DNA of 64,000 bases from Allosphingosinicella sp. (GCA_036402575.1 DASWSP010000084.1:9924-73923); one strand, 5' to 3'; shown: positions 3,606 through 52,392, counted from the stretch's first letter. The notes: generated from the letters alone by a model not told the origin. Numbers and translations are program-made.

Positions 3606-3629
3606 AAAACTGCACGAGGGAGCAGAATT
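3606..3629. promoter_or_regulatory. regulon operator copy O1
   Basis: AAAACTGCACGAGGGAGCAGAATT, a perfect AAAACTGC-N8-GCAGAATT. It lies ~55 nt upstream of the crotonase ATG and just after the tetR stop. Confidence 0.7.
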
Positions 3630-3632
3630 ACA

Positions 3633-4358
3633 TCAGGCTACCTTCTCGCGCACCATCCGCGGCGGATGCTGCGCCTGGGCGACGAGACTGTCGACTCCAT
3701 CCTCCATGCCGGCGTGGATCATCGCCAGGATCTCGGTGCGGGCGGTACCGCGCGTGGCGCCGGCCATGAAGGTCAGATAGCTCATCAGCAGTCGGGGGAT
3801 GATATCCTCGTCGGAAATCTGGCCGCGCGCCCATTCGTTGATGGTGGCATATTCGAAGCGCACAAGGTCGTCGGCGAGCTGGCCTGCATCCACCCACGGC
3901 TGGAGCTGACGGCGGGCCTGCAGCCGCCGGATCCATTCCAGATTGGGGTCGGTGCCCATGCGGTGCATCGTCTGCCACAGGTCCGGGTTCACCTCGGCGC
4001 TGAAGTAGATCGCCATGATCGCGCGGATATAATTGCGGATCTTGCGGTTGCGCCGGGTGACGGCGACGATCCGCTCGACGTTGCGCTGGAGCGTTCCGAC
4101 CGGACTGCGGTAGTTGATGCGCGCCAGATATTCGCTGAAATATTCCTGGATGGCGACGGCGATCAGCCGCTCGCGGGTCTGGAACGCATTGTAGAGCGTA
4201 CGTTTGGCGACGCCCGCGCGCTTGCACAATTCATGCATGCTGAAATCCCCGATCCCCTGTTCAGCGATCAGGTTCCGGGTCTCCTCGAGAATCCGGCGGC
4301 GCCGGTCCCGAATAGCTGGGCTTGAATAAGTCAGCGACTTGTCGCCTTTGTCGCTCAA
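3633..4358 (-). CDS. TetR/AcrR family transcriptional regulator
   Basis: N-terminal HTH RRRILEETRNLIAEQGIGDFSMHELCKRAGVAKRTLYNAF. Apparent TTG start at 4358. A TTGACG-18-TAAGAT sigma70-like promoter can be read upstream. Confidence 0.85.
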   Translation of the reverse strand: MSDKGDKSLTYSSPAIRDRRRRILEETRNLIAEQGIGDFSMHELCKRAGVAKRTLYNAFQTRERLIAVAIQEYFSEYLARINYRSPVGTLQRNVERIVAVTRRNRKIRNYIRAIMAIYFSAEVNPDLWQTMHRMGTDPNLEWIRRLQARRQLQPWVDAGQLADDLVRFEYATINEWARGQISDEDIIPRLLMSYLTFMAGATRGTARTEILAMIHAGMEDGVDSLVAQAQHPPRMVREKVA

Positions 4359-4426
4359 TCGATGTCCTTCACAATAACATGATCCAAATATCTTATCGGT
4401 TGCGCTGTTTGTACGTCAACCCAAGA

Positions 4427-5965
4427 TCAGCCACCGATCGTCCGTTCGGTCGGCCAGTAACGGCGCCGCAATTCGCGCTTGTTGATCTTCCCCATCGGAT
4501 TTCGGCCGAGGTCCTCGACGAATTCATAGGATCGCGGACATTTGTAGCCCGCAAGCGAGGCGCGGCAATGACGGTTGAGCGTGTCCTGGTCCGGCGGATC
4601 GGCCGGATCGGCGGCGACGATTAGCGCCTTGGCCTCCTCGCCCATTTCGGCGTTGGGAGCGCCGATCACCGCGACGTCGGCGACCTGCGGATGAGTCAAC
4701 AGGACCTGTTCGGCCTCGGCCGGGTAGATGTTGACGCCGCCCGAGACGATCATGTCCGACACCCGATCGGTGATGAACACGTAGCCGTCTTCGTCGACGA
4801 ACCCCATTTCGCCCAGGGTGAAGACGCCCGGCGCGATGTGCGCGGCGGCCGTCTTTTCGGGATCGCCATGATAGACGATGCCGCGCCCGCTCGGATCGCG
4901 CACATAGAGCTGGCCGACCTGGTTCGGCGCGAGCGGCTCGCCATCCTCGCCGACCACCACCGTCTCGAGCGGCGGCACCGCCTTGCCGACCGAGCCCGGC
5001 TTGCGCAGCCATTCCTCCGAAGCGATGGCGTGGGTCGTGCCCGCCTCGGTCCCGCCATAGGCCTCGAACAGCACCGGACCGAACCAGTCGATCATCGCGC
5101 GCTTGACCTCGCGCGGACAGGCGGCGCCGGTATGGGCGAGCCGCCTCATGCTCGACACGTCGTATTTCTCCCGCACCTGCGCCGGAAGCGCGAGCAGGCG
5201 CTGGAAATGGGTGGGCACCATCACCGATCCGGCGATCTTCTCGCGCTCGATCGTCGCCAGCGCGGCCTCGGGCTCGAAGGCGCTCATCACCACCAGCGCG
5301 CTGCCGCCCATCAGGCTGCGCACCATCGTCAGCGGGCCGGTATGGTAGAGCGGCCCGACGACGAGGCCCGGCGACGGAGTCGCGCGCGTGCGCATGATGG
5401 CGCCGAACTCGGCCATGTCGGCGGCCGGCGGGAAATAGCCGGGCGGCGTCTCGGTCGCCTTCGGCCGACCCGTGGTTCCTGACGTGTAATGGAGATGCGG
5501 CCGGGGCCTGACGTCGGTGGGCGGCGCCGAGTCAGGGGCGGCCCCGACCCATTCCTCCCAGGCGGTCAGGCCCGCGCGCGGGCTGCAGCGCCAGCCGACG
5601 ATCGTCTTGATTCCTGCCGTGGCCGCCGCGGCCATCCCCGCCTCCGCCGTCTCCTCCGCAACGAACAGCGCGCCGGCCCCGGAAGACTGGAGAATATAGG
5701 CGACCTCGTCCGGGGTGAGATGGAAGCTGACCGGCACGCTCGACAGGCCCGCCTCCAGCGCCGCGACATAGGCGATCACCGTCTCCGAGCTGTTGGGCGC
5801 GAACACGGCCACCCGCTGCGCCGCTCCGGCGGACAGGCCCTGCATCGCGTGGATCGCGCGGTTGAGGATGGGGTCGAGTTCGGCCCAGCTGTAGCGGACG
5901 CGCTCGTCCGCCAGCGCCAGCTCCCCGCGCCGCGCCGGCTCGATACCCGCCACCGTTACCGACAT
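4427..5965 (-). CDS. AMP-forming acyl-CoA synthetase (LvaE-like position)
   Basis: AMP-binding signature YTSGTTGRPKA. 512 aa. ATG at 5963-5965. Confidence 0.9.
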   Translation of the reverse strand: MSVTVAGIEPARRGELALADERVRYSWAELDPILNRAIHAMQGLSAGAAQRVAVFAPNSSETVIAYVAALEAGLSSVPVSFHLTPDEVAYILQSSGAGALFVAEETAEAGMAAAATAGIKTIVGWRCSPRAGLTAWEEWVGAAPDSAPPTDVRPRPHLHYTSGTTGRPKATETPPGYFPPAADMAEFGAIMRTRATPSPGLVVGPLYHTGPLTMVRSLMGGSALVVMSAFEPEAALATIEREKIAGSVMVPTHFQRLLALPAQVREKYDVSSMRRLAHTGAACPREVKRAMIDWFGPVLFEAYGGTEAGTTHAIASEEWLRKPGSVGKAVPPLETVVVGEDGEPLAPNQVGQLYVRDPSGRGIVYHGDPEKTAAAHIAPGVFTLGEMGFVDEDGYVFITDRVSDMIVSGGVNIYPAEAEQVLLTHPQVADVAVIGAPNAEMGEEAKALIVAADPADPPDQDTLNRHCRASLAGYKCPRSYEFVEDLGRNPMGKINKRELRRRYWPTERTIGG

Positions 5966-5985
5966 CCACGCCCTCCCCTACAATT

Positions 5986-6009
5986 GAATCTATACCGCTA
6001 TGCAGTTTT
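5986..6009. promoter_or_regulatory. regulon operator copy O2
   Basis: Reverse complement reads AAAACTGCATAGCGGTATAGATTC. It lies ~20 nt upstream of the acyl-CoA synthetase ATG and overlaps the MFS stop codon. Confidence 0.6.
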
Positions 6010-7347
6010 CACGGCAAGTTCGTTGCGGGAGATGGCGGGCTCGAGATAGCGCAGCGCCACCCGGAAGCTGACCAGCGCTACGATCGTGCCGGTGATCACC
6101 ACCACCGCCAGCGAATAACCGATCTTGGCCTCGTCGCGGAAAACATAGTCGGTCAGCGCCCCCACGATCGCCGGGCCGGCGCCGAGCCCCAGAATGGTGA
6201 AGACGAACAGGAACATGGCCAGCATCCGGGCGCGGATCGAGCTCGGCGCCAGCAGCGCCATGATCGAGGAGACGTAGACCATGAACGGCACGGTGATGAA
6301 CTGCGCGACGGCATAGCAGGCGAGGAAGACGTAGATGTTGTCGGCGAAGAACATGTAGGCGACCACCGGCATCAGCGCGAGGATCAGCCAGCTGTAGAAG
6401 CGCAGGTGCGCGTCCTTCATGCCGCGCCCGAACAAGCGGTCGACGATCCAGCCGTTCACGACGAGCGAGGCCGCGGCGATGATGTTCATCGCGCTCAGCG
6501 CCGGCCCATATTCCCCCGGCTCCCAGCCGAAGCGCCGGTCGATATAGGCCGGGATCCAGTTGCTCATCGAATAGCCGCAGATCGCGAGGCACGAGGTGCC
6601 GATCAGCATCAGCACGATCAGCTTCCAGTTGCCGCGGATGAAGGCCATCACCTCGCCGCGCAGCACTTCGTTACCGACGGCGCCCGGGCTGCGGCGGCGG
6701 CCCGGATCGGCGAAGGTGAACAGCAACGGGGCGAGGATGAAGCCCGGCAGGCCGACCATCATCAACACCAGCTGCCAGGGTTCCGCCGGTCCGTGGATCG
6801 GCAGATCCACGCCCTCGAAGGTGGTGGCGTAGGCGATCGCCAGGCCGCCGAGGCCGAAGGCGGTCGCCGATCCGACCTTGCCCGCCATCTGGAACGAGGA
6901 GGTGGCGATCGTCAGCTTGTCGCGCGAGAAGCCGTCCGAGATGAGCGAATAGGCCGCCGGCAGCAAAGCCGCCTCGCCCACTCCGACCAGGATGCGCGCG
7001 CCGAGCAGGCTCTCGTAGGAATCCGCGAAGCCGCAGGCAATGGTGGCGGTCGCCCAGAGGATGACCCCGAAGAAGATGATCCAGCGGCGCGAGAAGCGGT
7101 CCGCCGCCCAGCCGAGCGGCAGGCCGAACACGGCGTAGAAGATCGCGAACGAGGTCGAGGTGATCATGCTGATCTGGACGTCGCTGAGCAGCAGGTCCGC
7201 CTTGATCGGAGTCACCAGCATGCTGAGGATCAGCCGGTCGACCCAGGAGAAGACGTACATCACGAACAGCACGGTCACCATCCACCAGCTCGTGCGGCTG
7301 GCTTCGGCCTGGAGGGCGCTGACGGGATTGGCGTAGACGCTGGTCAT
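5998..7347 (-). CDS. MFS transporter
   Basis: Internal start MTSVYANP at 7347. 12-TM-like profile with MFS motif GWAADRFSRRW. The upstream extension of the track ORF is non-coding-like. Confidence 0.85.
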   Translation of the reverse strand: MTSVYANPVSALQAEASRTSWWMVTVLFVMYVFSWVDRLILSMLVTPIKADLLLSDVQISMITSTSFAIFYAVFGLPLGWAADRFSRRWIIFFGVILWATATIACGFADSYESLLGARILVGVGEAALLPAAYSLISDGFSRDKLTIATSSFQMAGKVGSATAFGLGGLAIAYATTFEGVDLPIHGPAEPWQLVLMMVGLPGFILAPLLFTFADPGRRRSPGAVGNEVLRGEVMAFIRGNWKLIVLMLIGTSCLAICGYSMSNWIPAYIDRRFGWEPGEYGPALSAMNIIAAASLVVNGWIVDRLFGRGMKDAHLRFYSWLILALMPVVAYMFFADNIYVFLACYAVAQFITVPFMVYVSSIMALLAPSSIRARMLAMFLFVFTILGLGAGPAIVGALTDYVFRDEAKIGYSLAVVVITGTIVALVSFRVALRYLEPAISRNELAVKTA

Positions 7348-7372
7348 CTGACTTCCTCTCGTGAGGCGTGCG

Positions 7373-8602
<1,230 letters not shown>

Positions 8603-8619
8603 CGGGCCGTCTCCATGGA

Positions 8620-9357
8620 TCAAAGGGTAAGTCCGCCGTCGACGAGCAAGGTCTGCCCGCAGATGTAGCCGGCCAGCGGCGAGGCGAGGAAAAGGGCGAC
8701 TCCGGCCATCTCATCGGTCGTGCCGAAGCGGCCCATCGGGATCTTGGCGAGCGCGCGCTCGCGGCGCTCGGGACTCTCCATCGTGACCTTGGTCATCTTG
8801 GTGTCGACGAGGCTCGGCGCGAAGCCGTTGACGCGGATGCCGTCCTTCGCCCAGGCTTGGCCCAGGGTACGAACGAGGCCGACCGCGGCCGTCTTGGACG
8901 CGGCATAAGCGGGGTTGCCCATGGTCGAGCGGAACGCCGCGACCGAGCTCACCACGATCACCGACCCCTTGGCGGCCTTCAGCAGCGGATGGAAGCGCTG
9001 GGCGATGTGCATGACGCTGTCGACGTTGACGGCCATCACCTTGTCCCAGCCCTGGCGCTCGAACTCCTTGCGGCCGTAGAGCACCGCCCCCTGCGACTGG
9101 ACGAGGATGTCGAGCCGCTCGAACGGCGCCTGCGCCGCGGCGATCGCGTCGGGATCGCTGACGTCGACGGAGACATAATGAAGGCCGGCGAGGTCGGAGC
9201 CCCCCTCCCCCTCATAGTCGGCCGCGCTCGCGCGGGTTCCCCAGACATGGACCTCGGCGCCGCGCGCCCGGAACGCCTGCGCGATCGCATTGCCGATGCC
9301 GCTCGATCCGCCGACCACGAGCGCGGTCTTGCCGCTGAAATCAAGCTCGCTTGTCAT
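8620..9357 (-). CDS. short-chain dehydrogenase/reductase (LvaD-like position)
   Basis: [15 protein letters not shown] Rossmann motif and YAASKTA (YxxxK). Internal start MTSELD at 9357. ATGA overlap with the upstream kinase gene. Confidence 0.85.
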
Positions 9358-10364
9358 CCGATCCACTCCTGCGCGCGCTCGAACAGGCGGACGGCGCGGC
9401 CGTGCAGACGCTCGCCGACATCCGCGGGCGCTTTGCCGGCGCAGGCGCGGGCGTGGGTTCCTTCGAGCAATATGCCGAGCTTGTAGCAGGCCAGCACCTT
9501 GTACCAATCCACCGCCGACAGATCGCGCGCGCTGCGTTCGCGATAATGCGCGACCAGCTCGTCGGCGGTGGGAAAGCCTTCCCAAGGCTCGACCCTGACG
9601 GTGCTTTCGCCGCCGTCGCCCGCCGGCCAGGTGGCGAGCAGCCAGCCCAGATCGATCAGCGGGTCCCCGATCGTCGCCAGCTCCCAATCGACGATTGCGG
9701 CCAGCTCCGGCCCATCGTTGCGGAACATGACGTTGGCGAGGTGATAGTCGCCGTGGATGATCCCCGGAATGAAATGCGCCGGCCGGTTTGCGTCCAGCCA
9801 TGCGGCGACCCGGGCGACGCCGGGCAGCCCGTCCGTCCAGCCGGGCATGGCGGCATAGCCGTCGAGCTGCTTCTTCCAGCGCGCGACCTGCCGCTCCAGA
9901 TAGTTTTCGGGCCGGCCGAAATCGCCGAGCCCGACCCGCGCATGGTCGACGGCGCCGAGCGCGGCGATTCCTTCGGCCATGGCGAGCCCCATGCGGCGGC
10001 GGATGGCGGGCGAACCGGCGTGCAGCGGCGGCAGGCCCGCGACCGGATTGAAGCCGTCGACCGGCACCATCAGGTAGAAAGCGGCGCCGAGCACCGATTC
10101 GTCGCCGCAGGCGGCGACCAGGGTCGGGTGCGGCACGTCGCTTCCGGCGAGCGCGGCAAGCACCCGCGCCTCGCGCCGCATCGTTTCGTTGGACTCCGGC
10201 CTGGGATGCGCGGGCGGATGGCGCAGCACATATTCCGCATCGCCGCGGCAAAAGCGCAGCAGGATGTTCTGCGTGCCGCCCGACAGCGCGGCAACGTCGC
10301 GGATCGGCCCCGCGCCAACGCCTTCGGCGTCCATCCAGCCCTCGAGAGCCTTGGTATCAACCAC
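9354..10364 (-). CDS. APH-type phosphotransferase (LvaA / ACAD10-11 kinase-domain-like)
   Basis: Kinase catalytic loop IIHGDYHLANVMF and IVDWE. Start uncertain: GTG at 10364 or ATG at 10334. Confidence 0.8.
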   Translation of the reverse strand: MVDTKALEGWMDAEGVGAGPIRDVAALSGGTQNILLRFCRGDAEYVLRHPPAHPRPESNETMRREARVLAALAGSDVPHPTLVAACGDESVLGAAFYLMVPVDGFNPVAGLPPLHAGSPAIRRRMGLAMAEGIAALGAVDHARVGLGDFGRPENYLERQVARWKKQLDGYAAMPGWTDGLPGVARVAAWLDANRPAHFIPGIIHGDYHLANVMFRNDGPELAAIVDWELATIGDPLIDLGWLLATWPAGDGGESTVRVEPWEGFPTADELVAHYRERSARDLSAVDWYKVLACYKLGILLEGTHARACAGKAPADVGERLHGRAVRLFERAQEWIG

Positions 10365-10437: not shown

Positions 10438-10461
10438 AAAACTGCACTGATGGTCAGAATT
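10438..10461. promoter_or_regulatory. regulon operator copy O3
   Basis: AAAACTGCACTGATGGTCAGAATT in the divergent region between the kinase operon (-) and the thiolase (+, ATG 10498). Confidence 0.65.
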
Positions 10462-10497: not shown

Positions 10498-11670
10498 ATG
10501 GGAGAGGCATATATCGTCGCGGTCGCGCGAAGCGCCGGCGGACGCAAAGGCGGTCGGCTGGCGGGATGGCACCCGACCGATCTGGCGGGGGCGGTCCTCA
10601 AGGGCCTGATCGAACGCAGCGGCGCCGATCCGGCCGCGATCGAAGACGTCATCATGGGCTGCGCCTGCCCCGGCGGCGAGCAGGGCGCCAACATCGGCCG
10701 CTATGCCGCGCTCGCGGCCGGCCTGCCCGAATCGGTGCCCGGTACGACCGTCGATCGCCAGTGCGGCTCATCGCAGCAGGCGCTGCATTTCGCGGCCGCG
10801 ACGGTGATGACGGGAACGATGGACGTGGTCATCGCCGCCGGCGTGGAATCGATGACCCGAGTGCCGATGGGCCTGCCCTGGACGCTCGCCGCCCAGCATG
10901 GCTACGGCACCTACCGCAGCCCCGGCCTCAACGACCGCTACGGCGACACGCCCTTCAGCCAGTTTTCGGGCGCGGAGATGCTCGCCCGCAAATACGGGTT
11001 CGACCGCGAGCAGCTCGACGCCTTCTCGCTTGAGAGCCACCGCAAGGCGATGGCCGCGACGCAAGGCGGCAAGTTCGACGCCGAGATCGTGCCGCTGCAA
11101 GTGACGCTGGAAGACGGGACCACCGAGACCCACCGCGCCGACGAGGGCATCCGGCGCGACGCGACGATCGAGAAGATCGCGTCGGTGAAGACGCTCCAGG
11201 AGGGCGGCATGATCACGGCCGCCAACGCCAGCCAGATCTGCGACGGCGCGGCGGCTCTGCTCATCGCCAACGAGCGCGGCCTCAAGGCGCTCGGCGCCAC
11301 GCCGCTGGCGCGCGTGCACCAGATGAGCGTGCTCGGCCACGACCCGATCATCATGCTCGAGGCCCCCATCCCCGCCACCGAGCGGGCGCTTCGGAAGGCC
11401 GGGATGAAGATCGACGACATCGATCTTTACGAGGTCAACGAGGCCTTCGCGCCCGTCCCGCTGGCCTGGGCGCAGGCGAGCGGCGCCGATCCGGAGCGGC
11501 TCAACGTCAATGGCGGCGCGATCGCGCTCGGCCATCCGCTGGGCGCGAGCGGCGCGAAGCTCATGACGACGCTCGTCCAGGCGCTTCACGACCGCGGCGG
11601 CCGCTACGGCCTGCAGACGATGTGCGAGGCCGGCGGCATGGCCAACGTGACGATCATCGAGCGGCTTTAG
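10498..11670 (+). CDS. acetyl-CoA C-acyltransferase (thiolase)
   Basis: Active-site Cys region [12 protein letters not shown], then [17 protein letters not shown] and CEAGGMA. 390 aa. Confidence 0.9.
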
Positions 11671-14250: not shown

Positions 14251-14274
14251 AATACTGCACTACGGTGCAGATTT
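14251..14274. promoter_or_regulatory. regulon operator copy O4
   Basis: AATACTGCACTACGGTGCAGATTT contains a perfect CTGCAC-N4-GTGCAG. It lies ~24 nt upstream of the hydratase ATG (14227). Confidence 0.7.
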
Positions 14275-16307: not shown

Positions 16308-16315
16308 TCGCGCGC

Positions 16316-19118: not shown

Positions 19119-19142
19119 AAAACTGCACTACAGGCTAATTTT
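19119..19142. promoter_or_regulatory. regulon operator copy O5
   Basis: AAAACTGCACTACAGGCTAATTTT. It lies ~70 nt upstream of the ACAD ATG (19049) and overlaps the last codons and stop of the hydratase gene. The right half-site is weaker. Confidence 0.55.
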
Positions 19143-21154: not shown

Positions 21155-21156
21155 GG

Positions 21157-24570: not shown

Positions 24571-24594
24571 AAAACTGCAACGTAGGCTACAATT
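24571..24594. promoter_or_regulatory. regulon operator copy O6
   Basis: AAAACTGCAACGTAGGCTACAATT, ~78 nt upstream of ACAD ATG 24493. A TTGACT hexamer (minus strand, 24613..24618) lies 18 nt upstream in the direction of transcription. Confidence 0.6.
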
Positions 24595-26296: not shown

Positions 26297-26320
26297 AATT
26301 TTGCACTGTGGACTACAATT
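26297..26320. promoter_or_regulatory. regulon operator copy O7
   Basis: AATTTTGCACTGTGGACTACAATT, 16 nt upstream of the P450 ATG. TTGACA (minus strand, 26338..26343) lies 17 nt upstream, so the operator starts at the predicted -10. Confidence 0.65.
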
Positions 26321-31657: not shown

Positions 31658-31681
31658 AATTTAGCACTGCAGTGTAGAATT
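31658..31681. promoter_or_regulatory. regulon operator copy O8
   Basis: AATTTAGCACTGCAGTGTAGAATT, ~77 nt upstream of the fbiC ATG. Confidence 0.6.
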
Positions 31682-31745: not shown

Positions 31746-31769
31746 ATTTCTAACCTGCAATGCAAAATT
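31746..31769. promoter_or_regulatory. regulon operator copy O9
   Basis: Reverse complement reads AATTTTGCATTGCAGGTTAGAAAT. It lies ~99 nt upstream of the fused CoA-transferase ATG (31868). Confidence 0.55.
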
Positions 31770-34258: not shown

Positions 34259-34286
34259 GCGCGACGAAGAAAGCAGGGGAACAGCG

Positions 34287-35297: not shown

Positions 35298-35309
35298 GGG
35301 AGAGCTTGT

Positions 35310-37384: not shown

Positions 37385-37387
37385 GGC

Positions 37388-38533: not shown

Positions 38534-38534
38534 G

Positions 38535-40580: not shown

Positions 40581-40581
40581 T

Positions 40582-42657: not shown

Positions 42658-42672
42658 TGCCGCCGGTCAGCC

Positions 42673-44763
42673 TTACTTGGCCGCCACGGCCTTGGATGCA
42701 GCCCCCGCCTTGGCCTCGCGCGCGCGCTGGCGGATATAGTGGCGCAGCCCCTCCAGCTCCTGATCGGTGAACTCGGTGAAGCTGGGCATGCCGCGCTCCA
42801 TCAGAATCCCGCCATGCACCACGGACTTGAACGCCTCCGAATCCAGGGGCACGCCCGCGCTCTTGAGATCCGGCGCCGCGCCGCCCGCATTCATGCCGAC
42901 GCCGTGGCAGATGACGCAGCTGCCATTGTAGATGGCGGAGCCGACCGCGGCCTGCTTCTCGTCGATCACGAACTCGGGATCGTCCTGGATCGGCAGGTCG
43001 ACCTGCTCGAACGGCGGCAGCTGCGCCTTGCCGTCGAGCACGAAGGTCAGCACCCGGCGCTTCTGCTGGCGGTAGTCCCAGTTGGGCGTGTTCGGGAAGC
43101 TGCTTCGGAAGCCGGTGATGACGGTGACATATTGCTTGCCGTCGACGCGGTAGGTGATCGCGTTGCCGATGATCCCGTTCTGCGCGTTGAACGACCAGAC
43201 CTGCTTGCCCGTGTCCGCCGCGAGCGCGACGAACTCGCCCGTGTTCAGGCCCTGGAAGACCAGGTTGCCTCCGGTCGTGATCGTGCCGCCGTTGATGATG
43301 TTCTTGCGGTCGACCTTCCACGCCTGCTTCTGCGCGATCGGATCCCACGCGATCAGCGCGCTGGTGGGCGGCGGCACCGTCATGTCAGCAGGCGGCGGCC
43401 CGAGACCGGTATTGACGAAGCCGCGCGGCCGGAACTTCCAATCGGGAAGGGCCGGCGGATCGACGAACACGCGCCCGCCTTCCACGATCGGTATGTAGAC
43501 CAGCTTCGACTTGCGGTTGTACGACATCGTCTGCGGGCCGTGCGCGCCCGTCGGGAACGGATAGATGACGACCGGCTTGCCGTTCGGGAAGCGCGCGTCG
43601 GCCGTTTCGACCGGCCGGCCCGACTTGAGGTCGATCCGCTCCGCCCATGTCGCCTTGCCGAACTTCTCGGCCGAGATCAGCTTCCCGTTGGTACGGTCGA
43701 TCACGTAGAAGAAGCCGTTCTTCGGCGCGTGGATCAGCACCGGCTTGATCTCGCCGCCGACCGGCAGGTCGGCGAGCTGGATATCCATGGTGTTGTTGAA
43801 GTCCCAGGTCTCGCCCGGATTGACCTGGTAATGCCAGGCGTATTCGCCGGTGTCGGCGTCGAGCGCGACGATCGAGGCGAGGAACAGATTGTCGCCGCCG
43901 CCCGGGCTGCGGATCTTCTGGTTCCACGGCGCGCCGTTGCCGGTGCCCAGGTAGATGCGGTTGAAGCGCGGGTCATAGGCCATGGCGTGCCAGACGGTGC
44001 CGCCCGCTCCGCCGTGCTTCCACCACTCGCCGGTCCAGGTCTTGGCGGCCATTTCCATGGCCTTGTTCTCGAAGCCCTTGGCGGGGTCGCCGGGGACGAC
44101 GTAGAAGCGCCACGCCCGCTTGCCGGTGTTCATGTCGTAAGCGGTCACATAGCCGCGCACGGGGTTGTAGTCGGCGCCGCCGAAGCCGATCACCACCTTG
44201 TCGCCGGCGACCCAGGGCGGCCCCGTAATATATCCGCCTTCGGCCTCGTCGAGCGTCTGCTCGCTCCACAGCAGGTTCCCGTTCTTGGCATCGACGGCGA
44301 TCAGGCGGCCGTCGCGCGTGCCCGTGAAGATCTTGCCGTCGGCATAGGCGATGCCGCGAATGCCCCAGCCCGCGCGCATCTTGTCGCCGGCGTGCTTGGC
44401 GACCTGCGGATCATATTGCCAGAGCTGCTTGCCGCTGCGCGCGTCGATCGCGTGGAGGATGCTGTGGCCGACTCCGAAATAGATGACGCCGTTCACGGCC
44501 AGCGGCGCCGTGTAGGTGTCGAAATTGTCGAGGTCGTGTGACCAGGCGAGCCCGAGCCGCTCGATATTCTTGTCGTTGATCTGGTCGAGCGGGCTGTAAT
44601 GGTCCTCGCTTGCGGTACGGCCGTAATGCTGCCAGTTGGCGCCATCATCCTCGGCGAACGCCGCCGTGCGGTCGGCATCGTCTTTCTTGGAGCAGGCCAC
44701 GGCGCTGATCGCCAGCGCTGCGAAACCAAGAATCGAAGCCAGCTTCTTCCCGATGCCCTTCAT
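42673..44763 (-). CDS. PQQ-dependent quinohemoprotein dehydrogenase (lipoprotein), tandem paralogue
   Basis: Internal start MKGIGKK at 44763. Signal ending AVAC. Same propeller motifs (ETWDFN). C-terminal CVICHG. Confidence 0.85.
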   Translation of the reverse strand: MKGIGKKLASILGFAALAISAVACSKKDDADRTAAFAEDDGANWQHYGRTASEDHYSPLDQINDKNIERLGLAWSHDLDNFDTYTAPLAVNGVIYFGVGHSILHAIDARSGKQLWQYDPQVAKHAGDKMRAGWGIRGIAYADGKIFTGTRDGRLIAVDAKNGNLLWSEQTLDEAEGGYITGPPWVAGDKVVIGFGGADYNPVRGYVTAYDMNTGKRAWRFYVVPGDPAKGFENKAMEMAAKTWTGEWWKHGGAGGTVWHAMAYDPRFNRIYLGTGNGAPWNQKIRSPGGGDNLFLASIVALDADTGEYAWHYQVNPGETWDFNNTMDIQLADLPVGGEIKPVLIHAPKNGFFYVIDRTNGKLISAEKFGKATWAERIDLKSGRPVETADARFPNGKPVVIYPFPTGAHGPQTMSYNRKSKLVYIPIVEGGRVFVDPPALPDWKFRPRGFVNTGLGPPPADMTVPPPTSALIAWDPIAQKQAWKVDRKNIINGGTITTGGNLVFQGLNTGEFVALAADTGKQVWSFNAQNGIIGNAITYRVDGKQYVTVITGFRSSFPNTPNWDYRQQKRRVLTFVLDGKAQLPPFEQVDLPIQDDPEFVIDEKQAAVGSAIYNGSCVICHGVGMNAGGAAPDLKSAGVPLDSEAFKSVVHGGILMERGMPSFTEFTDQELEGLRHYIRQRAREAKAGAASKAVAAK

Positions 44764-44811: not shown

Positions 44812-44835
44812 AATCCTGCACATAAGTGCAATATT
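44812..44835. promoter_or_regulatory. regulon operator copy O10
   Basis: AATCCTGCACATAAGTGCAATATT (TGCAC-N4-GTGCA), ~49 nt upstream of ATG 44763. TTGACA (minus strand, 44843..44848) lies exactly 7 nt upstream in the direction of transcription. Confidence 0.65.
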
Positions 44836-45130: not shown

Positions 45131-47470
45131 TCAGTGATGCGGCCGCGTCGCGACCTCGATCCGGTTCAGCTTGCCGGTGAACGCGCTTCCGGCCGAAGTG
45201 TAGCTGTCGTCGACGGAGGTGATCGAATCCTGCCCGACGTCGAAGCCTTCGGTATGCGACACGACAAGCGGAAAGGTGCGCTCGACACGCGCCCTGCCCA
45301 CGACGCGCCCGTCGGCCTCGAGGATGACGTTCGCCGGGCTCGCGGGCTTCTCCTGGTCGAGCGTGAAGCGCAGCGTGAGCCGATGCCGGCCGGACCCGAG
45401 CGGCTGGTCGCCGACCAGCCGGGTGACGTGCGCGGGGGTGATGTTGAACGTGAAGGCGGGGCGGCCTTGCCGCAGGAAAAGGCTGTAGCCGCCGAAGCGG
45501 CCGCCATGCGCCGCCAGGACGCCGCTCGCGCCCCCTTCCGGCACCTCGATGTCGGCGGTGATCACGAACGAGCGGCCGACCACCGGCGGAGCCGAAGTCT
45601 CGGCAAGCTGGCGCAACGGCGCCGTATAGACGAAGCTCGAGCGCCCGACATGGAGATCGGGGCGTCCCTGCTGGCGCCCTTCGCTCGAGTGGATCGGCAA
45701 TAGCCCGGCCTTCCCCGCCTGGGCCCAGAACGTCGCCTTCATCCGCTCGAGCCGCCGGGGCTCGATGGCGGCAAGGTCGCGCGACTGGTTGAAATCCTCG
45801 GCGACGTTGTAGAGCTCCCATTTGCGGTCGTCGAACGCGACCGGCGGTGGCGGACTCGTTTCCCAAGGCGTGACGGCGGGCGTCGTCGCGACCACCCAGC
45901 CGTCCTGGTAGAGGCTGGCATTCTCGCCGACCGCCGACACCTGCATGGTGCGCCGCGAAGCCGCCCCCGGTTCGGCGATCGTGTAGCGCATGCTGATGCC
46001 GGTGATCGGCTGCTGCGCGACACCCTCGATGCTCGGCGGCGGCTGGACGCCGGCAATGTCGAGCACCGTCGGCATGACGTCGCTGACATGCATGAATTGG
46101 TCGCGGATCGCGCCGGGATCGCGCACCCGCCCCGGCCATGACAGCACCATGCCGTTGCGCACGCCGCCGAAATGGGACGCGTAGCGCTTGGCCCATTTGA
46201 ACGGCGCGTTGAGCGCCCAGCCCCAGCCGCCGGGATAGAGGCTGTAAGTGCTGCGGGTGCCGATCTCGTCGATATGCGCGTAAGCGTGGTCGATCGACTC
46301 GCGAATGCCGCTCAGCGGCGACTGCTCGTACAGCTTGCCGTCGAAGCTGCCTTCGGCGCTGGCGCCGTTGTCGCCCTGGATGAAGATGATCAGCGTGTTG
46401 TCATAGTCGCCGCTGGCCTTGAGGCTGTCGATCACCCGCCCGATCTGGAAGTCGGCGAAGGCGAGCGAAGCGGCATAGGCTTCCATGTGCCGGGCATAGA
46501 GCCGCTTCTTCTCGGGCGGCAGCGAGTCCCAGCGCGGAAGGGTCTCGGGCCTCGGCACGTCGACCACGTTTTCGGGGATCACGCCGATCGCCCGCTGCCG
46601 CTCGACGATCTGGCTTCTGAGGGCTTCCCAGCCCCGATCGAATTTCCCGCGGAATTTCCGAAGCCACTCGTCGGGCGCGTGATTGGGGGCGTGCGCGGTA
46701 CCGGGCGCGAGATAGACGAAGAACGGCTTGTCCGGCGCCGCCCCCTGCTGCTCGCCGATCCATTGGATGGCGCGGTCCGCCAGGTCGCGGTCGAGATGAT
46801 AATCGGGGCTGTTCGGCACCGATGTCACGGGCCGGGTATTCTCGACGAGGTTGGGCTCGTACTGGCTCGTGTCGGCGCCGAGGAAGCCGTAATAATATTC
46901 GAAGCCGAGGCCCGTCGGCCAGCGGTCGAACGGGCCGGCCTGGCTCATCTCCCATTCCGGAGTCACGTGCGCCTTGCCGAACATCGCGGTGTTGTAGCCG
47001 GCGTCGCGCAGGATCCGGGCCATCGTGCCGGCGCTTTTCGGAATGACGCTGCTGTGGCCGTCATAGCCCGTCGCCCAGTTGGAGACGTAGCCCATTTCCA
47101 CGGCCTGCGGGTCGCGCCCCGTCAGCAGGGAGGCCCGGGTGGGCGAGCAGATCGCCGTGGTGTGGAAGCGGTTGTAGCGGAGGCCCTCGCGGGCCAGCGC
47201 GTCCAGCGTCGGCGTCGGGATCGGGCCGCCGAACGTGCTCGAGGCGCCGAAGCCGACGTCGTCGGTCATGATGATCAGGACGTTCGGTGCGCCCGCCGGC
47301 GCCCGGACCGGCTGCGGCCAGACCGGCGGCGAGGATTCGGCCAGGGTTCGGCCGACCACCTTTTGAGCCGGGGCGGCCGCGGCGGCGGCGAAGGGCTGCG
47401 GTAGGAGCAAAGCGAAGATGCCTGCTACCGCCGCCAGCTTCGCCCCGCTCGCCCGCCTCCCTCGAATCAT
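45131..47470 (-). CDS. Cys-type arylsulfatase with C-terminal lectin-like extension (779 aa)
   Basis: Signal peptide, LIIMTDDVGFG, and formylglycine motif CSPTRASLLTGR. AGGGGAG RBS. Confidence 0.85.
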   Translation of the reverse strand: MIRGRRASGAKLAAVAGIFALLLPQPFAAAAAAPAQKVVGRTLAESSPPVWPQPVRAPAGAPNVLIIMTDDVGFGASSTFGGPIPTPTLDALAREGLRYNRFHTTAICSPTRASLLTGRDPQAVEMGYVSNWATGYDGHSSVIPKSAGTMARILRDAGYNTAMFGKAHVTPEWEMSQAGPFDRWPTGLGFEYYYGFLGADTSQYEPNLVENTRPVTSVPNSPDYHLDRDLADRAIQWIGEQQGAAPDKPFFVYLAPGTAHAPNHAPDEWLRKFRGKFDRGWEALRSQIVERQRAIGVIPENVVDVPRPETLPRWDSLPPEKKRLYARHMEAYAASLAFADFQIGRVIDSLKASGDYDNTLIIFIQGDNGASAEGSFDGKLYEQSPLSGIRESIDHAYAHIDEIGTRSTYSLYPGGWGWALNAPFKWAKRYASHFGGVRNGMVLSWPGRVRDPGAIRDQFMHVSDVMPTVLDIAGVQPPPSIEGVAQQPITGISMRYTIAEPGAASRRTMQVSAVGENASLYQDGWVVATTPAVTPWETSPPPPVAFDDRKWELYNVAEDFNQSRDLAAIEPRRLERMKATFWAQAGKAGLLPIHSSEGRQQGRPDLHVGRSSFVYTAPLRQLAETSAPPVVGRSFVITADIEVPEGGASGVLAAHGGRFGGYSLFLRQGRPAFTFNITPAHVTRLVGDQPLGSGRHRLTLRFTLDQEKPASPANVILEADGRVVGRARVERTFPLVVSHTEGFDVGQDSITSVDDSYTSAGSAFTGKLNRIEVATRPHH

Positions 47471-47511
47471 GTCTCCCCTTGCCCGCCGCTACTCAGGCTC
47501 TCGCGCAAGCG

Positions 47512-50500
47512 TCAGAACTTGAACCGAACGCCTGCCGTGTAGGCACGTCCGATGACATCGTAGACGGCAAGGTTGGTCGGGAAGTTCACGCCCGGAATGG
47601 TCCCGGGGATCAGCGGCGGCTTCTTGTCGAACAGGTTGTTGACGGTGATGAACGGCTCGATCGTCCCGCCATGGCCCTCCACTTCAGCCCGCAAGGTGAG
47701 GTCCGTGTAGGATACGGATCCGACCTTCGGATCGACGAAGAAGGAGCGCGCGCCGTTCGGGAGGCTGCCCGGGATGTCGAGCCGCATCTTGCCGATCAGC
47801 TGCTGCGAAACCGTGATCCCGAACGGTCCGTTCGTGTAATCGGCCGTCAGGTTGCCGCGCCAGCGCGGATAGGCCGCAGGGTTGCTGCTGACCACGCTGA
47901 CGCCCGCGAAGTTCAGCGTCGGCGCGCCGGTGAACTGCTGCGTTTCGAACTTGTCCAGATAGTTGGCGTACAGCCGCAGCGACAGCTTGCCGTCGCCGAC
48001 GTTGGTCCGATAGGTCGCGTCGAAATCGATGCCCCGCGTCTTGAGGAACGCGATGTTGGCCGGCTGCACGCGGATCAGCGTCGGGAACTCCGTCGGCGAC
48101 GGACGGTCGATCAGGTCGCATTCGGGAGCCGAGCCGCTGCTGTTGTTGCAGTTGGTCAGGATCTGCTGCGCCGAAAGCTGGTCGATGAGACCGTCGATCT
48201 TGATCGAATAATAGTCGATCGAGGCGCTGAAGCCGGGGAAGAAGGTCGGTCTCAGCACCGCGCCGAAGGTCAACGTCTTCGCCACCTCCGGCTTGAGATT
48301 CTGGTTGCCGCTGATGACGCTTGAGACGTTGCGGTTGATGCCGGTCACCGTATCGTTGACGATACCGATCGCCGATTGCGCGCCGGCGAACAGCTCGAAC
48401 AGATTGGGCGCGCGGATGTCGCGGGAATAGGTGCCGCGCAGCAACACGTCTTCGATCGGCGACCAGACCGCGCCGACCTTCCAGGTCGTCACCGCCCCCG
48501 ACACTTCATAATCGGTGCGGCGCACGGCGCCGTTGAGGCTGAGCTCGTGGAAGCCCGGGGTCTCCTTGAGGATCGGAACGGCGACTTCGGCGAAGGCTTC
48601 CTTGACGTCCTCGCTGCCGTTTGCCGTGCCGACGTTGGTCAGCCAGAAGAAGAGCGCGTTGGCGGGAACTCCGCGCAACCCGCCGAACTGCGCGTTGCGC
48701 TCGGCGGCGGTGTCGAGCCGCGCCGGATCGGCGTTGCTGGTCAGCCGAAGCGTCTGTTTGCGATATTCGGCTCCGAGCGCGAAATCGACGGGACCGGCAG
48801 GCAGTTCGAAAATGCTGCCGCTGAGGCTGGCGGTGATCCCGTCCTGCTTGATCCTGGCGTCGTAGCTCGACGTGCCGGTGACATAGTCATAGCCGACCGG
48901 AGTCGAGCGCGACGGATCGCCGTTCAGCGGATTGAAGGGCGCGCAACCCGAATATTGGGCCGCAAAGGCGGGATCGGTCAGGACGCGGCAGGTGGGAACG
49001 CCGTTCACCAGCACGACGTCGACGGCCGCGTAAAGCTTCTGCGCCTCGTAAAGGCCCGTCGTGTCCATCGAGTGGTCGGACTGGCCGTGGGTATAGGCGA
49101 CGTCCCATTTCCAGCCGTTGCCGAAGCTGCCGTCGAAGCCGGCCGTCGCCATCCAGTAATCGGTGCGCTCGTCCGCGATCGGCGCCGGCTGGCCCGCATC
49201 CTGCTGCTGGACGGTGATGTTGTCGCCGGGGTTGGGAACCAGCGCCCGCATCGCCGGCGACAGGAACGGGTTGCCGTTGAAGATCCTGACTTCGTTGCTG
49301 GGGCCGATCAGCGAATTGGTCTGGGTCGGATAGCTGAAGTCGCTGCGCGCGAAGATGCCCTGGACATAGGCGGTGATGTTGTCGGTCAGATCATAGCTGA
49401 GCCGCCCGAAGGTCTGGTAGTTCTTGACCGGGATGACGGCGGCGCCGCGCGCGGAAATGTAGTAGCCGTCGCCGCCCTGCTGGAAGCCCGTCGTGCCGAC
49501 CGGGGTGCCCGGGCTGAACGAACGCAGGCTGCCGTCATTGTTGATCACCGGGCCGGCCGCGCCCAGCGCAACGCCGTTGCGCGCCGTGATCCGGCCGTTG
49601 GCCGCGATCGCGGAAATGCGGACGTCGGGGCGGATGACGAAGGGATTGCCGGCCGAACCGGGCTGGAGGTTGGTGCCGCCCGGGCCGGTGCCCGGATTGG
49701 CGCCGACGTAGACGAAGTTGCTGTCCCCGTTCTCGCGCTCGTCGCGCCGCATGCCCTCGTTGCTGAAATATTCGCCGCTGAGCAGGATGTGGCCGCGCCC
49801 GCCGGCGAAGCCGACGCCGCCGGCGACGCCGATGCGCTGATTCTCGTTGTCGCCCTGCTCTGCCACGCCGGCCTGGGCCACGCCGGTGAGGCCGGTGAAT
49901 TTCTTGTCGAGGACGAAATTGACGACGCCGGCGACGGCGTCCGATCCCCATGCGGCCGAGGCGCCGCCGGTGACGACATCGACCCGCGACAGCAGCAGCT
50001 GCGGGATCACGTTGGTGTCGATCGTGCCGATATATTCGGTCGGCGGAACCCGGATGCCGTCGAACAGGATGAGCGTGCGCAGCGGCCCCTTCGGATTGGC
50101 GCCCGTGGTGCCCAGGCCGCGCAGGTTGAGGATGTTGCCGTGGATCGGCAGGTTCGAGAAGTTCGATGCCGCCTTCGCGCCGCCGAGCGAGTTCGAGAAT
50201 TGCGGCAGCTTGTTGAGCGCATCGGGAATGCTGCTCGGGGTGCCCAGCAGCAGCTCCTCGGTGGTGGCGACCGTAACCGGCGTGGGGGCCGTGTAGCCGT
50301 CGCGAACGATGCGCGATCCGGTAACGACAATGTCCGGCCCGGCCGAAGTCTCTCCCGCCGCGGCGTCACTCACCACCGGCTCCTGCTCGCCCGCCGGCTC
50401 ATCGAGCGCGGCGGCTTCGGCCTGGTCCGCGGGCGCCTGAGCCTGGGCGCGGCCTGGCGTCGCTAAGACAATCGCCGTACTGCACAAGGCGGTGGTTGCC

Positions 50501-50529
50501 AGCAACTTGAAGGTGCGACCGGTTTGCAT
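47512..50529 (-). CDS. TonB-dependent receptor
   Basis: Internal start MQTGRTF at 50529 (GGGGAGGA RBS). Signal ending AQAQA, plug region DIVVTGSRI, C-terminal barrel ending VRFKF. Confidence 0.9.
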   Translation of the reverse strand: MQTGRTFKLLATTALCSTAIVLATPGRAQAQAPADQAEAAALDEPAGEQEPVVSDAAAGETSAGPDIVVTGSRIVRDGYTAPTPVTVATTEELLLGTPSSIPDALNKLPQFSNSLGGAKAASNFSNLPIHGNILNLRGLGTTGANPKGPLRTLILFDGIRVPPTEYIGTIDTNVIPQLLLSRVDVVTGGASAAWGSDAVAGVVNFVLDKKFTGLTGVAQAGVAEQGDNENQRIGVAGGVGFAGGRGHILLSGEYFSNEGMRRDERENGDSNFVYVGANPGTGPGGTNLQPGSAGNPFVIRPDVRISAIAANGRITARNGVALGAAGPVINNDGSLRSFSPGTPVGTTGFQQGGDGYYISARGAAVIPVKNYQTFGRLSYDLTDNITAYVQGIFARSDFSYPTQTNSLIGPSNEVRIFNGNPFLSPAMRALVPNPGDNITVQQQDAGQPAPIADERTDYWMATAGFDGSFGNGWKWDVAYTHGQSDHSMDTTGLYEAQKLYAAVDVVLVNGVPTCRVLTDPAFAAQYSGCAPFNPLNGDPSRSTPVGYDYVTGTSSYDARIKQDGITASLSGSIFELPAGPVDFALGAEYRKQTLRLTSNADPARLDTAAERNAQFGGLRGVPANALFFWLTNVGTANGSEDVKEAFAEVAVPILKETPGFHELSLNGAVRRTDYEVSGAVTTWKVGAVWSPIEDVLLRGTYSRDIRAPNLFELFAGAQSAIGIVNDTVTGINRNVSSVISGNQNLKPEVAKTLTFGAVLRPTFFPGFSASIDYYSIKIDGLIDQLSAQQILTNCNNSSGSAPECDLIDRPSPTEFPTLIRVQPANIAFLKTRGIDFDATYRTNVGDGKLSLRLYANYLDKFETQQFTGAPTLNFAGVSVVSSNPAAYPRWRGNLTADYTNGPFGITVSQQLIGKMRLDIPGSLPNGARSFFVDPKVGSVSYTDLTLRAEVEGHGGTIEPFITVNNLFDKKPPLIPGTIPGVNFPTNLAVYDVIGRAYTAGVRFKF

Positions 50530-50743: not shown

Positions 50744-50767
50744 GTTTCTGCACTAATATGCAGAATT
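50744..50767. promoter_or_regulatory. regulon operator copy O11
   Basis: GTTTCTGCACTAATATGCAGAATT (perfect TTCTGCA-N6-TGCAGAA). TTGACA (minus strand, 50775..50780) lies 7 nt upstream. ~215 nt upstream of the receptor ATG. Confidence 0.65.
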
Positions 50768-50778
50768 GGCGATGTGTC

Positions 50779-50802
50779 AATCTTAATCGGCAGTGCAATT
50801 TT
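50779..50802. promoter_or_regulatory. regulon operator copy O12
   Basis: Reverse complement reads AAAATTGCACTGCCGATTAAGATT. It overlaps the putative -35 of the receptor promoter. Confidence 0.55.
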
Positions 50803-50810
50803 GGGGGCGG

Positions 50811-52358
50811 TCAGCGGGCCTCGCCGGGGAAGGTTTCCCCCGTGTCGGTTGCCCATTTGGCGTGCCAGAGGCGCAGCTGCCGGGCGCGAAAGCCGGGAAC
50901 GGCAGTGAACGTGTCGCGGATGACGAGCGGGGTCTGGGCGCTCGGGGCGAAGCGCGGCCACGGCGCGAGGCCCGCCCCGTTCGGGTTCCCGGTGCGGACG
51001 AAGTTCACGAGATAATCCTGCATGGTGCCGGCCACGGCCGCATCAAGCGCGGTCGGCGACTTCAAGGTGCCGAACCAGTAGGGCATGTCGGCGCAGTGCG
51101 GAGCGCCGGGTGCCGTATCCCTCAGCCGCTCGTCGACATGGTCGAAATGATAGCCGTAAGCGGGCGATCCCGCGCGCGATGCGAGCGTCGCCATGCCGAG
51201 GCTCGCCGAGGTGAAGATGAAATCCGTCTGCACCTGGCGTAGCAATTCGCCATCGTCGAGCGGGGCGCCCTGGGCATACACCGGCCGGAGCGCATCGACG
51301 TCGACTCCGAAGCGCTGCGCGAGCACCGTCCGGTCGAAGCCCATCAGCCCGAACACGCTCGCTTCGTTGCTCGTCGAGCCGACGATGAGCGGGACCTTGG
51401 CGATCTCGCCGCGGGCGAACGAGACCGAAATCTGCCGGGGCAGCAAAGTGCCGTCGATGATCGCGCCGAAGTTCGGGGGGCCCGGATCGGCAGCCATGAC
51501 CTCGGCAGGCGTGAGGGCTCGAAGCCTCGCCAGCGCTCCAGCTCCCGTCTCGCCGATGCCGGCCCGCGCCGCGAACTCGACGCCCTGCTGCTCGGCGACC
51601 GGCAGCGGGCGCGTGGCATTGAAGAAGCCTCCGCCCGAATGGACGGAAGCGCGCGCGAAAAGGCCGCGCGAGCGCGGCGAGGCGACGAGCGAGTTGACGC
51701 TCGATCCGCCCGCCGAGCAACCGAGGATGGTGACGTTCTGGGGATCGCCGCCGAACCTGGCGATATTGCGCTGCACCCAGCGCAACGCCGCCATCTGGTC
51801 CATCAGCCAGTAATTGCCGATCGCATCGCCGCCGCGCTGCGCGCTGATCGCCGGGTGCGCGAAAAAGCCGAGCCGGCCGAGGCGGTAGTTCGGCGCGACG
51901 AGGACGACTCCCCTGCGCACGACCGGCGACAGGCCCTGATCGGCCAGGTCGCGGCCGGATCCGGCGAAGAACGCGCCGCCGTGGATCGAGACCAGGACCG
52001 GCAGCTTGCGCCCCCGCAGATCGGGAGTGACGACATTGAGCGTGAGGCAGTCCTCGCTTTGCGGGCCTTCGTCGCTTCCCTCGCGCGCAGGCTGCGGGCA
52101 GCTCGGCCCGAACCGCGTGGCGTCGCGCACGGCGGGCCAGGGGCGCGCGGGTTGCGTCGGCCGCCAGCGCAGCGGACCGACCGGCGGTGCCGCATAGGGG
52201 ATCCCGCGGAAGGCTGCGGCTTTTGGACCAAGAGCGACGCCCTTCACCCGCCCCCGATCGGTGGCGACGACGGGAGCGGCAGACGCCTCGTTCGGAAGGG
52301 CGGCTGCGGGCGCGGCAGCCGCACACCCCAACAGTACGGCTCGTATGAAGTGTCCCAC
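50811..52358 (-). CDS. secreted type-B carboxylesterase/lipase
   Basis: Signal peptide and carboxylesterase-B signature FGGDPQNVTILGCSAGG (Ser nucleophile; Cys where Glu is usual). Apparent GTG start at 52358. Confidence 0.85.
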   Translation of the reverse strand: MGHFIRAVLLGCAAAAPAAALPNEASAAPVVATDRGRVKGVALGPKAAAFRGIPYAAPPVGPLRWRPTQPARPWPAVRDATRFGPSCPQPAREGSDEGPQSEDCLTLNVVTPDLRGRKLPVLVSIHGGAFFAGSGRDLADQGLSPVVRRGVVLVAPNYRLGRLGFFAHPAISAQRGGDAIGNYWLMDQMAALRWVQRNIARFGGDPQNVTILGCSAGGSSVNSLVASPRSRGLFARASVHSGGGFFNATRPLPVAEQQGVEFAARAGIGETGAGALARLRALTPAEVMAADPGPPNFGAIIDGTLLPRQISVSFARGEIAKVPLIVGSTSNEASVFGLMGFDRTVLAQRFGVDVDALRPVYAQGAPLDDGELLRQVQTDFIFTSASLGMATLASRAGSPAYGYHFDHVDERLRDTAPGAPHCADMPYWFGTLKSPTALDAAVAGTMQDYLVNFVRTGNPNGAGLAPWPRFAPSAQTPLVIRDTFTAVPGFRARQLRLWHAKWATDTGETFPGEAR

Positions 52359-52368
52359 CCCCGCCCCT

Positions 52369-52392
52369 TTTTCTGCTCACCTGTGCAGTTTT
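52369..52392. promoter_or_regulatory. regulon operator copy O13
   Basis: Reverse complement reads AAAACTGCACAGGTGAGCAGAAAA. It lies only ~10 nt upstream of the esterase GTG. Confidence 0.6.

Follow-up and report, generated by a model that had tools for sequence, protein, structure and literature searches.

Several TetR-family repressors control clusters of genes for lipid catabolism. KstR and KstR2 of Mycobacterium and Rhodococcus, which govern cholesterol catabolism and have acyl-CoA thioesters as ligands, recognize a palindrome that precedes many operons within a large lipid-type cluster; the KstR operator is TnnAACnnGTTnnA. In Pseudomonas and Xanthomonadales, PsrA (Smlt2053, XAC2014) is a fatty-acid-responsive repressor of beta-oxidation genes that acts at a palindrome near the transcription start, with the sequence G/CAAAC(N2-4)GTTTG/C (PMC10304680). 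EdcR of Caenibius (Novosphingobium) tardaugens, the ligand of which is estradiol, is, among sphingomonad TetR-type repressors of catabolic clusters, the only one that we found to have been studied experimentally; its palindrome, TnnCnnTACnAnTnGTAnnGnnA, overlaps the -10 element of several promoters, and a weaker copy is located at its own gene (PMC8700777). The TetR-type FadR of Bacillus and Thermus, as well as FadR of Sulfolobus, are reported to be repressors of beta-oxidation operons that are released by acyl-CoA (PMC5397183, PMC6449355). Here we describe a 64,000-nucleotide stretch of DNA (hereinafter, the window) from Allosphingosinicella sp. (GCA_036402575.1 DASWSP010000084.1:9924-73923), in which a 24-bp palindromic element occurs 13 times in front of the transcription units of a ~50-kb catabolic cluster. 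It is quite probable, judging from the sequence and its conservation, that this element serves as operator for the TetR-family protein encoded at 3633-4358, which would repress the 13 units and be released from them by a ligand.

The first-pass annotation, made by reading the window sequence by eye, listed 13 copies of the element, and each of these 24-mers was verified at its place and on its strand, as were the two perfect inverted repeats among them (O4 and O11 in the list below). With a symmetrized position weight matrix (PWM) trained on the 13 sites, the scores are 21.4-33.1 bits (18.0-32.1 bits in leave-one-out scoring), and the list is complete because the best non-site position on either strand of the window reaches just 9.1 bits. 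In agreement with the earlier claim that the copies are confined to the cluster, the PWM detects none outside of the 3.6-52.4 kb interval, with zero copies in the 14 kb of window DNA beyond the cluster. With up to 3 mismatches allowed, the degenerate consensus has 8 matches in the window compared to 0.01 expected from shuffles of the whole window. The base composition of the window is 68.4% G+C; with a motif rich in A/T and a genome rich in G+C, the fair null is shuffling of the intergenic DNA only (4.9 kb, 38% A+T); dinucleotide shuffles of this set yield 0.02 matches of 16 bits or more, compared to the 13 observed. In an unbiased count of intergenic 8-mers, the half-site AAACTGCA ranks top, with 6 copies against 0.09 expected. 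Among exact intergenic dyads, CTGC-N8-GCAG is also top-ranked, but its excess does not survive correction, owing to the degeneracy of the sites; when exact inverted repeats are counted in the window as a whole, coding-sequence bias prevails and nothing useful emerges. Conservation drops to approximately zero information outside the 24 bp, and the flanks are not conserved. The consensus is AAWWCTGCAC-N4-GTGCAGWWTT in the window and AAWWTTGCAC-N4-GTGCAAWWTT in the family at large, so that the CTGCAC core originally proposed stands for the window but gives way to TTGCAC across relatives. The element in front of the catabolic units is a real, recurrent motif.

The search of orthologous clusters for the motif that had been suggested along with the initial list was carried out by scanning for orthologues of the TetR gene, with one genome per species, which yields 49 loci, 43 of these with orthologues of at least 48% identity. 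The 43 loci span 770 kb from at least four families and come from Sphingomonas, Sphingobium, Novosphingobium, Sandaracinobacteroides, Niveispirillum (Azospirillaceae), Luteimonas and other Lysobacteraceae, Terricaulis, and metagenome-assembled genomes (MAGs); cultured carriers of the orthologue include Sphingomonas solaris R4DWN, S. jatrophae S5-249 and Sphingobium chlorophenolicum NBRC 16172. At a threshold of at least 16 bits with the window-derived matrix, they contain 146 sites, compared to 0-8 for 20 palindrome-preserving column permutations. In 225 kb of control DNA, which consists of paralogue loci (identity of 42% or less), a paralogue locus on a Novosphingobium megaplasmid and five other sphingomonad regions, there is 1 site, and the TetR paralogue loci with identity of 42% or less contain none. 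Annotation of the related loci by blastx against the window proteins places 137 of the 146 sites at most 350 bp upstream of homologues of window target genes, with the gene order shuffled between genera. The TetR-adjacent enoyl-CoA hydratase (ECH) accounts for 48 sites, the first pyrroloquinoline quinone (PQQ) dehydrogenase for 34, the double CoA-transferase for 27, TetR for 17, the acyl-CoA dehydrogenase (ACAD) pair for 10, the thiolase for 9 and the esterase for 7, with others in addition. The order TetR, site, hydratase, flavin reductase is almost invariant, and a site scoring 16 bits or more is present at 37 of the 38 TetR-ECH junctions. In Sphingobium estronivorans AXB (locus L048, 9990-10250), an internal deletion and a frameshift have reduced the TetR orthologue to a remnant, and of the site that precedes FbiC the half ATTTTTGCAC is retained and the other half lost (8 bits); this single natural knockout is consistent with the pairing of TetR and site. 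The initial assignment of the TetR protein as the regulator thus gains support from the conserved junctions, the site-free paralogue loci and the pseudogene accompanied by a decayed site.

In two loci from Sphingomonadales MAGs (L041 and L042), there are two TetR paralogues per locus, with 48-49% identity to the window protein and sites near both. As a candidate plasmid-borne copy of the system, Novosphingobium resinovorum pHR1a was rejected: it carries just a paralogue with 42% identity, and the motif is absent.

The protein encoded at 3633-4358 contains the N-terminal helix-turn-helix (HTH) domain PF00440 at residues 23-67 (E = 5e-11), and Pfam annotation identifies its gene as the only regulator gene within the cluster, as had been claimed. 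An AlphaFold (AF2) model (predicted local distance difference test score of 89.8) has 11 helices and the TetR fold, with a predicted all-helical C-terminal domain of the ligand-binding and dimerization type. A Foldseek search against the PDB started with this model yields 164 matches with E <= 0.001, the best 50 of which all belong to the TetR family; among the matches listed, the nearest structures are AvaR1, the acyl-CoA-sensing KstR, and EthR, at ~20% identity and template modeling scores of 0.55-0.63. In a sequence search against solved structures, nearly all matches are limited to the N-terminal (HTH) half. Orthologues of this protein are many (54-84% identity) and share two near-invariant segments, AKRTLYNAFQT in the HTH region and YSSPAI..RRRRILEETR at the N-terminus; helix 1 begins with an invariant arginine-rich stretch, which may read the A/T flanks of the site. 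The protein scores below every NCBIfam equivalog cut-off (19-35 bits compared to 200-300 for KstR, CurR, PsrA and FadR).

Genes of the window were called by codon-usage log-odds, and 50 of them were annotated with Pfam. Between 2 and 52.4 kb, nearly all genes are on the minus strand and form 13 inferred transcription units, each with one or two copies of the element in front; the functional labels given to the operons in the first-pass annotation agree with this independent gene map. Its range of distances between site and start codon, 10-215 nt, is right at the lower end and too short at the upper end, the measured range being 10-249 nt. The placement of the sites between genes holds for most copies, except that O2 and O5 reach into the final codons of the gene ahead of them, by 12 and 15 nt, respectively. 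Promoter calls, here and below, are consensus matches with the flanks oriented by the downstream gene, and the boxes are accordingly predictions. The features are as follows.

3633..4358, minus strand: TetR-family regulator gene (PF00440), proposed cognate repressor
4390..4419, minus strand: predicted sigma-70-like promoter of the TetR gene, TTGACG-N18-TAAGAT
3606..3629: site O1, 3 nt past the TetR stop codon, before the enoyl-CoA hydratase/flavin reductase unit (2070-3549, minus strand)
5986..6009: site O2, before the acyl-CoA synthetase-TetR unit (3633-5953, minus strand), overlapping the end of a major facilitator superfamily (MFS) transporter gene; a predicted promoter, TTGCCG-N17-TATAGA, spans the site
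10438..10461: site O3, between the divergent kinase-short-chain dehydrogenase/reductase (SDR)-ACAD-MFS unit (5998-10364, minus strand) and thiolase gene (10498-11670, plus strand); counterparts in relatives sit before homologues of the APH-type kinase and thiolase
14251..14274: site O4, 33.1 bits, perfect CTGCAC-N4-GTGCAG at 14255-14270, before the hydratase/long ACAD unit (11667-14227, minus strand); the site lies between the predicted -35 TTGAAA and -10 TATTAG
19119..19142: site O5, before the ACAD-thiolase-cytochrome c-CoA-transferase-SDR unit (14279-19049, minus strand), overlapping the end of a MaoC-like gene; TTGACT follows 2 nt after the motif
24571..24594: site O6, before the ACAD pair/zinc alcohol dehydrogenase (ADH)/CoA-transferase/MaoC unit (19128-24493, minus strand); TTGACT lies 18 nt upstream of the site; counterparts in relatives precede ACAD_d homologues
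26297..26320: site O7, 15 nt before the P450-ferredoxin-dodecin unit (24625-26281, minus strand); TTGACA lies 17 nt upstream of the site
31658..31681: site O8, 31.4 bits, in a divergent region, before the F420 unit FbiC-Fno-CofE-CofD-CofC (26324-31581, minus strand); the final two T of the site are the start of TTGACG
31746..31769: site O9, before the double CoA-transferase/luciferase-like monooxygenase (LLM)/SnoaL unit (31868-35963, plus strand), with the LLM gene at 34287-35297; motif-N2-TTGCCT
44812..44835: site O10, before the unit of two PQQ-ADH, FadB, thiolase-like, DUF35 and SGL genes (35927-44763, minus strand); TTGACA-N7-motif
50744..50767: site O11, perfect TTCTGCA-N6-TGCAGAA at 50746-50765, covering the spacer and -10 of the TonB receptor/sulfatase promoter (unit 45131-50529, minus strand); TTGACA-N7-motif
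50779..50802: site O12, the second site of the TonB receptor/sulfatase promoter; the TTGACA -35 box begins with the final two T of the site
52369..52392: site O13, 10 nt before the carboxylesterase open reading frame (50811-52358, minus strand); the site starts 2 nt past the predicted TTGACG-N16-TCTAAC

Some of the genes in these units have unusual features of their own. The ACAD encoded at 11667-13328 (minus strand) has an N-terminal extension of ~165 amino acids without a Pfam match; a small cytochrome c gene (16316-16699, minus strand) is inserted between the thiolase and CoA-transferase genes of a beta-oxidation-type operon; and the gene at 31868-34258 (plus strand) encodes one 796-amino-acid protein that consists of two family-III CoA-transferase domains. 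Most related loci retain this protein, accompanied by a luciferase-like oxidoreductase and a SnoaL-like protein.

Relative to the predicted promoters, the sites fall mostly into two conserved placements. In the first, TTGACA is located exactly 7 nt upstream of the site, so that the operator covers the predicted spacer, -10 element and start; this arrangement is seen in 22 of the 34 PQQ-ADH promoters orthologous to that of O10 and, within the window, at O10 and O11. In the second placement, the site ends 2 nt before, or overlaps by 2 nt, a conserved (C)TTGC/A hexamer, as in 27 of 47 ECH promoters (where a CTAG-like -10 follows ~17 nt after the hexamer), in 25 of the 29 CoA-transferase promoters orthologous to that of O9, and at O5, O8, O9 and O12. 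As to the other sites in the window, O2 and O4 are in the predicted spacer, O6 and O7 start at the expected -10, and O13 is just past the -10. The stronger half-site adjoins the -35 box in 22 of 22 promoters with the first placement and in 45 of 54 with the second, which fits competition with RNA polymerase for the -35 region. The mechanism that we infer, with respect to physical binding, repression rather than activation, promoter positions and ligand alike, is that one or two dimers of the TetR repressor would bind each site, that the sites overlap or abut the predicted -35, spacer, -10 or transcription start of the 13 units, and that the bound protein would exclude RNA polymerase from them. 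A metabolite of the pathway would then bind to the C-terminal domain and release the repressor; given the nearest structures (AvaR1, KstR and EthR) and the neighboring acyl-CoA synthetase gene, our guess is that this ligand might be an acyl-CoA thioester or the free acid.

Several observations weigh against this assignment. The related loci were gathered via the TetR gene, so that the co-occurrence of TetR and sites is in part a matter of design. No operator is detected at the predicted promoter of the TetR gene itself (4419..4390), where the best score is 2.6 bits; many orthologous TetR genes do have a weaker site upstream. Accordingly, the autoregulation by read-through from O2 envisaged in the first-pass annotation is plausible via the synthetase gene, but the TetR gene also has this operator-free predicted promoter of its own. 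Roughly half of the promoters have the site ahead of the predicted -35 (approximately -61 to -38), a position less typical of a repressor. The guess on the ligand draws on gene context and on distant structural neighbors (~20% identity). Finally, a reverse search for the perfect consensus in metagenome contigs returned 104 loci, none of them with regulon genes; this search is uninformative because 0 of 149 real sites match the consensus perfectly. Seven of the loci in question (L117, L144, L081, L093, L105, L082 and L090, from metagenome contigs 'R23__coassemble_*' and others) contain arrays of ~22-bp tandem repeats similar to GCACCGCAGTGCAAATTTATTT, which include perfect consensus matches without regulon genes and resemble iterons or another repeat family of an unrelated organism.

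Given the upstream placement, dual control by the TetR protein is to be considered as a minor rival to uniform repression: the protein would repress the PQQ-ADH and TonB receptor promoters, where the site lies over the -10 or the start, and activate the ECH/flavin reductase, CoA-transferase/LLM and FbiC promoters, where it extends just to the -35 box. The two site placements are indeed sharply distinct and conserved, the upstream one puts the A/T flank of the site at the position of an UP element, and some TetR-family proteins have dual roles, for example, LuxR of Vibrio harveyi, which is reported to be both an activator and a repressor (PMC2628434). However, all the units belong to one catabolic cluster, so that opposite regulation has no obvious logic; with only 0-2 nt between the site and the -35 hexamer, a dimer on the site would probably collide with sigma region 4; and the stronger half-site is next to the -35 in both placements, as expected for a protein that competes for that box. 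Dual control therefore appears unlikely. A regulator other than TetR could also be the one that binds, either the Crp/FNR-like protein encoded at 54443-55096 or a protein encoded elsewhere, in which case the TetR gene would be a mere passenger. FNR-type boxes have 5-N4-5 geometry, which the core TGCAC-N4-GTGCA shares; the Crp-like HTH gene (54443-55096, plus strand) is located 2 kb past the last site, outside the cluster; and the TetR promoter in the window lacks a site. Nevertheless, a homologue of the Crp-like gene is found in 0 of the 43 related loci, whereas TetR adjoins a site at nearly all of the TetR-ECH junctions; several sites cover the predicted -10 or start or are found 10-23 nt from the start codon, which are not class I or class II activator positions; and the site is decayed in S. 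estronivorans, where TetR is a pseudogene. A CRP/FNR-type site, which is accompanied by its regulator and centered near -41.5 or -61.5, was rejected on the same grounds, and binding by another factor seems quite improbable altogether.

The palindrome could in principle act as a nucleic acid structure, that is, an intrinsic terminator, an RNA hairpin between co-directional operons, or a repeat resembling repetitive extragenic palindromes (REP) or miniature inverted-repeat transposable elements (MITE). Most sites separate genes of the same orientation, a stem of 6-10 bp with TTTT behind it could form from the consensus, and the perfect copies fold at -12 to -16 kcal/mol, but most copies fold weakly (-0.2 to -7 kcal/mol), and divergent regions without transcript ends also hold sites (O3, O8, O9 and many orthologous loci). 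At core pairs 7-10 of 135 distinct sites, there are fewer Watson-Crick combinations than among shuffled partners and almost no compensatory changes, which indicates that the bases are conserved as such and not for pairing. An Rfam scan yields no match, and a tRNA scan likewise finds nothing; given the lack of covariation, the weak folds and the sites in divergent regions, a terminator or structured RNA was rejected. With regard to a REP- or MITE-like element, the DNA covered here, namely the window, the related loci and the controls, shows no conservation past the 24 bp, no copies in the 14 kb of the window outside the cluster and a single site in 225 kb of control DNA. The terminator or repeat interpretation is very improbable and close to refuted, and a shared operator rather than a dispersed repeat is supported by these comparisons. 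Chance, or a compositional artefact of aligning by eye the A/T-rich promoter DNA of a 68% G+C genome, could account for the A/T-rich outer flanks, which are like those of promoters, but has a negligible probability and is refuted by the intergenic shuffles, by leave-one-out scores of 18-32 bits over a background of 9 bits, and by conservation in four families.

With the TetR repressor retained as the preferred reading, the system can be compared with the described ones. It resembles KstR and KstR2 in combining a TetR repressor with a palindrome that recurs upstream of many operons in an extensive lipid-type cluster, and KstR is among the nearest structural neighbors of the model. Unlike in the case of KstR, the host is proteobacterial, there are no steroid ring-cleavage genes in the window, and the operator differs from that of KstR; orthology with KstR was rejected because the protein scores 34.6 bits against the cut-off of 280 of NCBIfam NF033703; the identity is ~20%. 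The likeness to PsrA lies in a TetR repressor of beta-oxidation genes with a palindrome near the transcription start in Proteobacteria, but the PsrA regulon is small and local, unlike that of the window, the PsrA site is different, and the protein reaches 19.7 bits where the cut-off is 300. EdcR has estradiol as its ligand and controls a different gene set (edc), and its operator differs from the window and family consensus at most positions. The TetR-type FadR of Bacillus is set apart by the protein score (18.9 bits against a cut-off of 200). No features shared with the bile-salt cluster of Sphingobium Chol11 were found. The earlier statement that the element differs from known operators is thus upheld for the KstR and PsrA sites, extended to the EdcR site and complemented by the NCBIfam scores of the protein. 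A full-text literature search for the pattern or for a sphingomonad regulator of such a cluster, with RegPrecise outside its scope, found no description. Taken together, these comparisons suggest that the protein works like KstR, PsrA, the TetR-type FadR and EdcR but belongs to none of those families, and the element and the TetR protein are most likely a candidate pair that constitutes a previously undescribed TetR operator and regulon, an ordinary kind of gene switch.

Among the proteins encoded by the target genes are a TonB receptor together with a sulfatase, an esterase and a pair of quinohaemoprotein alcohol dehydrogenases; a CYP101-like P450 accompanied by ferredoxin and dodecin; paired ACADs along with a MaoC-type hydratase, a DUF35/thiolase-like pair and family-III CoA-transferases; and a kinase-SDR-ACAD-transporter set with a synthetase. 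The ~50-kb cluster would accordingly be catabolic, with uptake functions and several sets of beta-oxidation genes suited to acyl-CoAs that are bulky, branched or hydroxylated, and its gene content suggests a substrate of the same character, either lipids or terpenoid acids. The region 4427-10364 (minus strand) brings together genes for an APH-like kinase, an SDR, an ACAD, an MFS transporter and an acyl-CoA synthetase. The same enzyme set is known from the Pseudomonas lva and mammalian ACAD10/11 routes, where 4-hydroxyacyl-CoA is phosphorylated and the phosphate is then eliminated (PMC10802472); the likeness, known here from the genes, suggests by analogy that the cluster has a branch for 4-hydroxy or 4-oxo acids.

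A complete set of F420 biosynthesis genes (FbiC, Fno, CofE, CofD and CofC) is located directly upstream of the P450-ferredoxin-dodecin unit in this alphaproteobacterial window (24625-31581, minus strand). F420 operons next to TetR or other regulon genes also have sites in two related loci (L036 and L038) and, weakly, in a third (L027). No site is found at five other sphingomonad FbiC loci (L155-L159), one of them from Sphingomonas solaris, whose genome carries the TetR regulon at another place; the F420 operon is therefore not a universal but a lineage-specific member of the regulon. The role of F420 in Proteobacteria has been listed as an open question in a 2021 review (PMC8498797). Given that the pathway includes a luciferase-like oxidoreductase, we tentatively raise the possibility that, in this lineage, the F420 operon is switched on through the same operator and repressor as the lipid/terpenoid-type pathway, with F420 made on demand as its cofactor. 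If true, this would give F420 a concrete and testable physiological role in Proteobacteria.

These findings do not reveal a new regulatory principle. They define, by sequence alone, a putative regulator-operator pair and a regulon of ~50 kb, and many Proteobacteria of soil and water have the pair in conserved form, including Sphingomonadaceae, Niveispirillum, Luteimonas and Terricaulis. The pair gives an experimental handle on an uncharacterized catabolic cluster: the ligand of the TetR protein would point to the growth substrate, the regulator and operator could serve as a biosensor part, and, in some lineages, the synthesis of F420 would be tied to a defined pathway.

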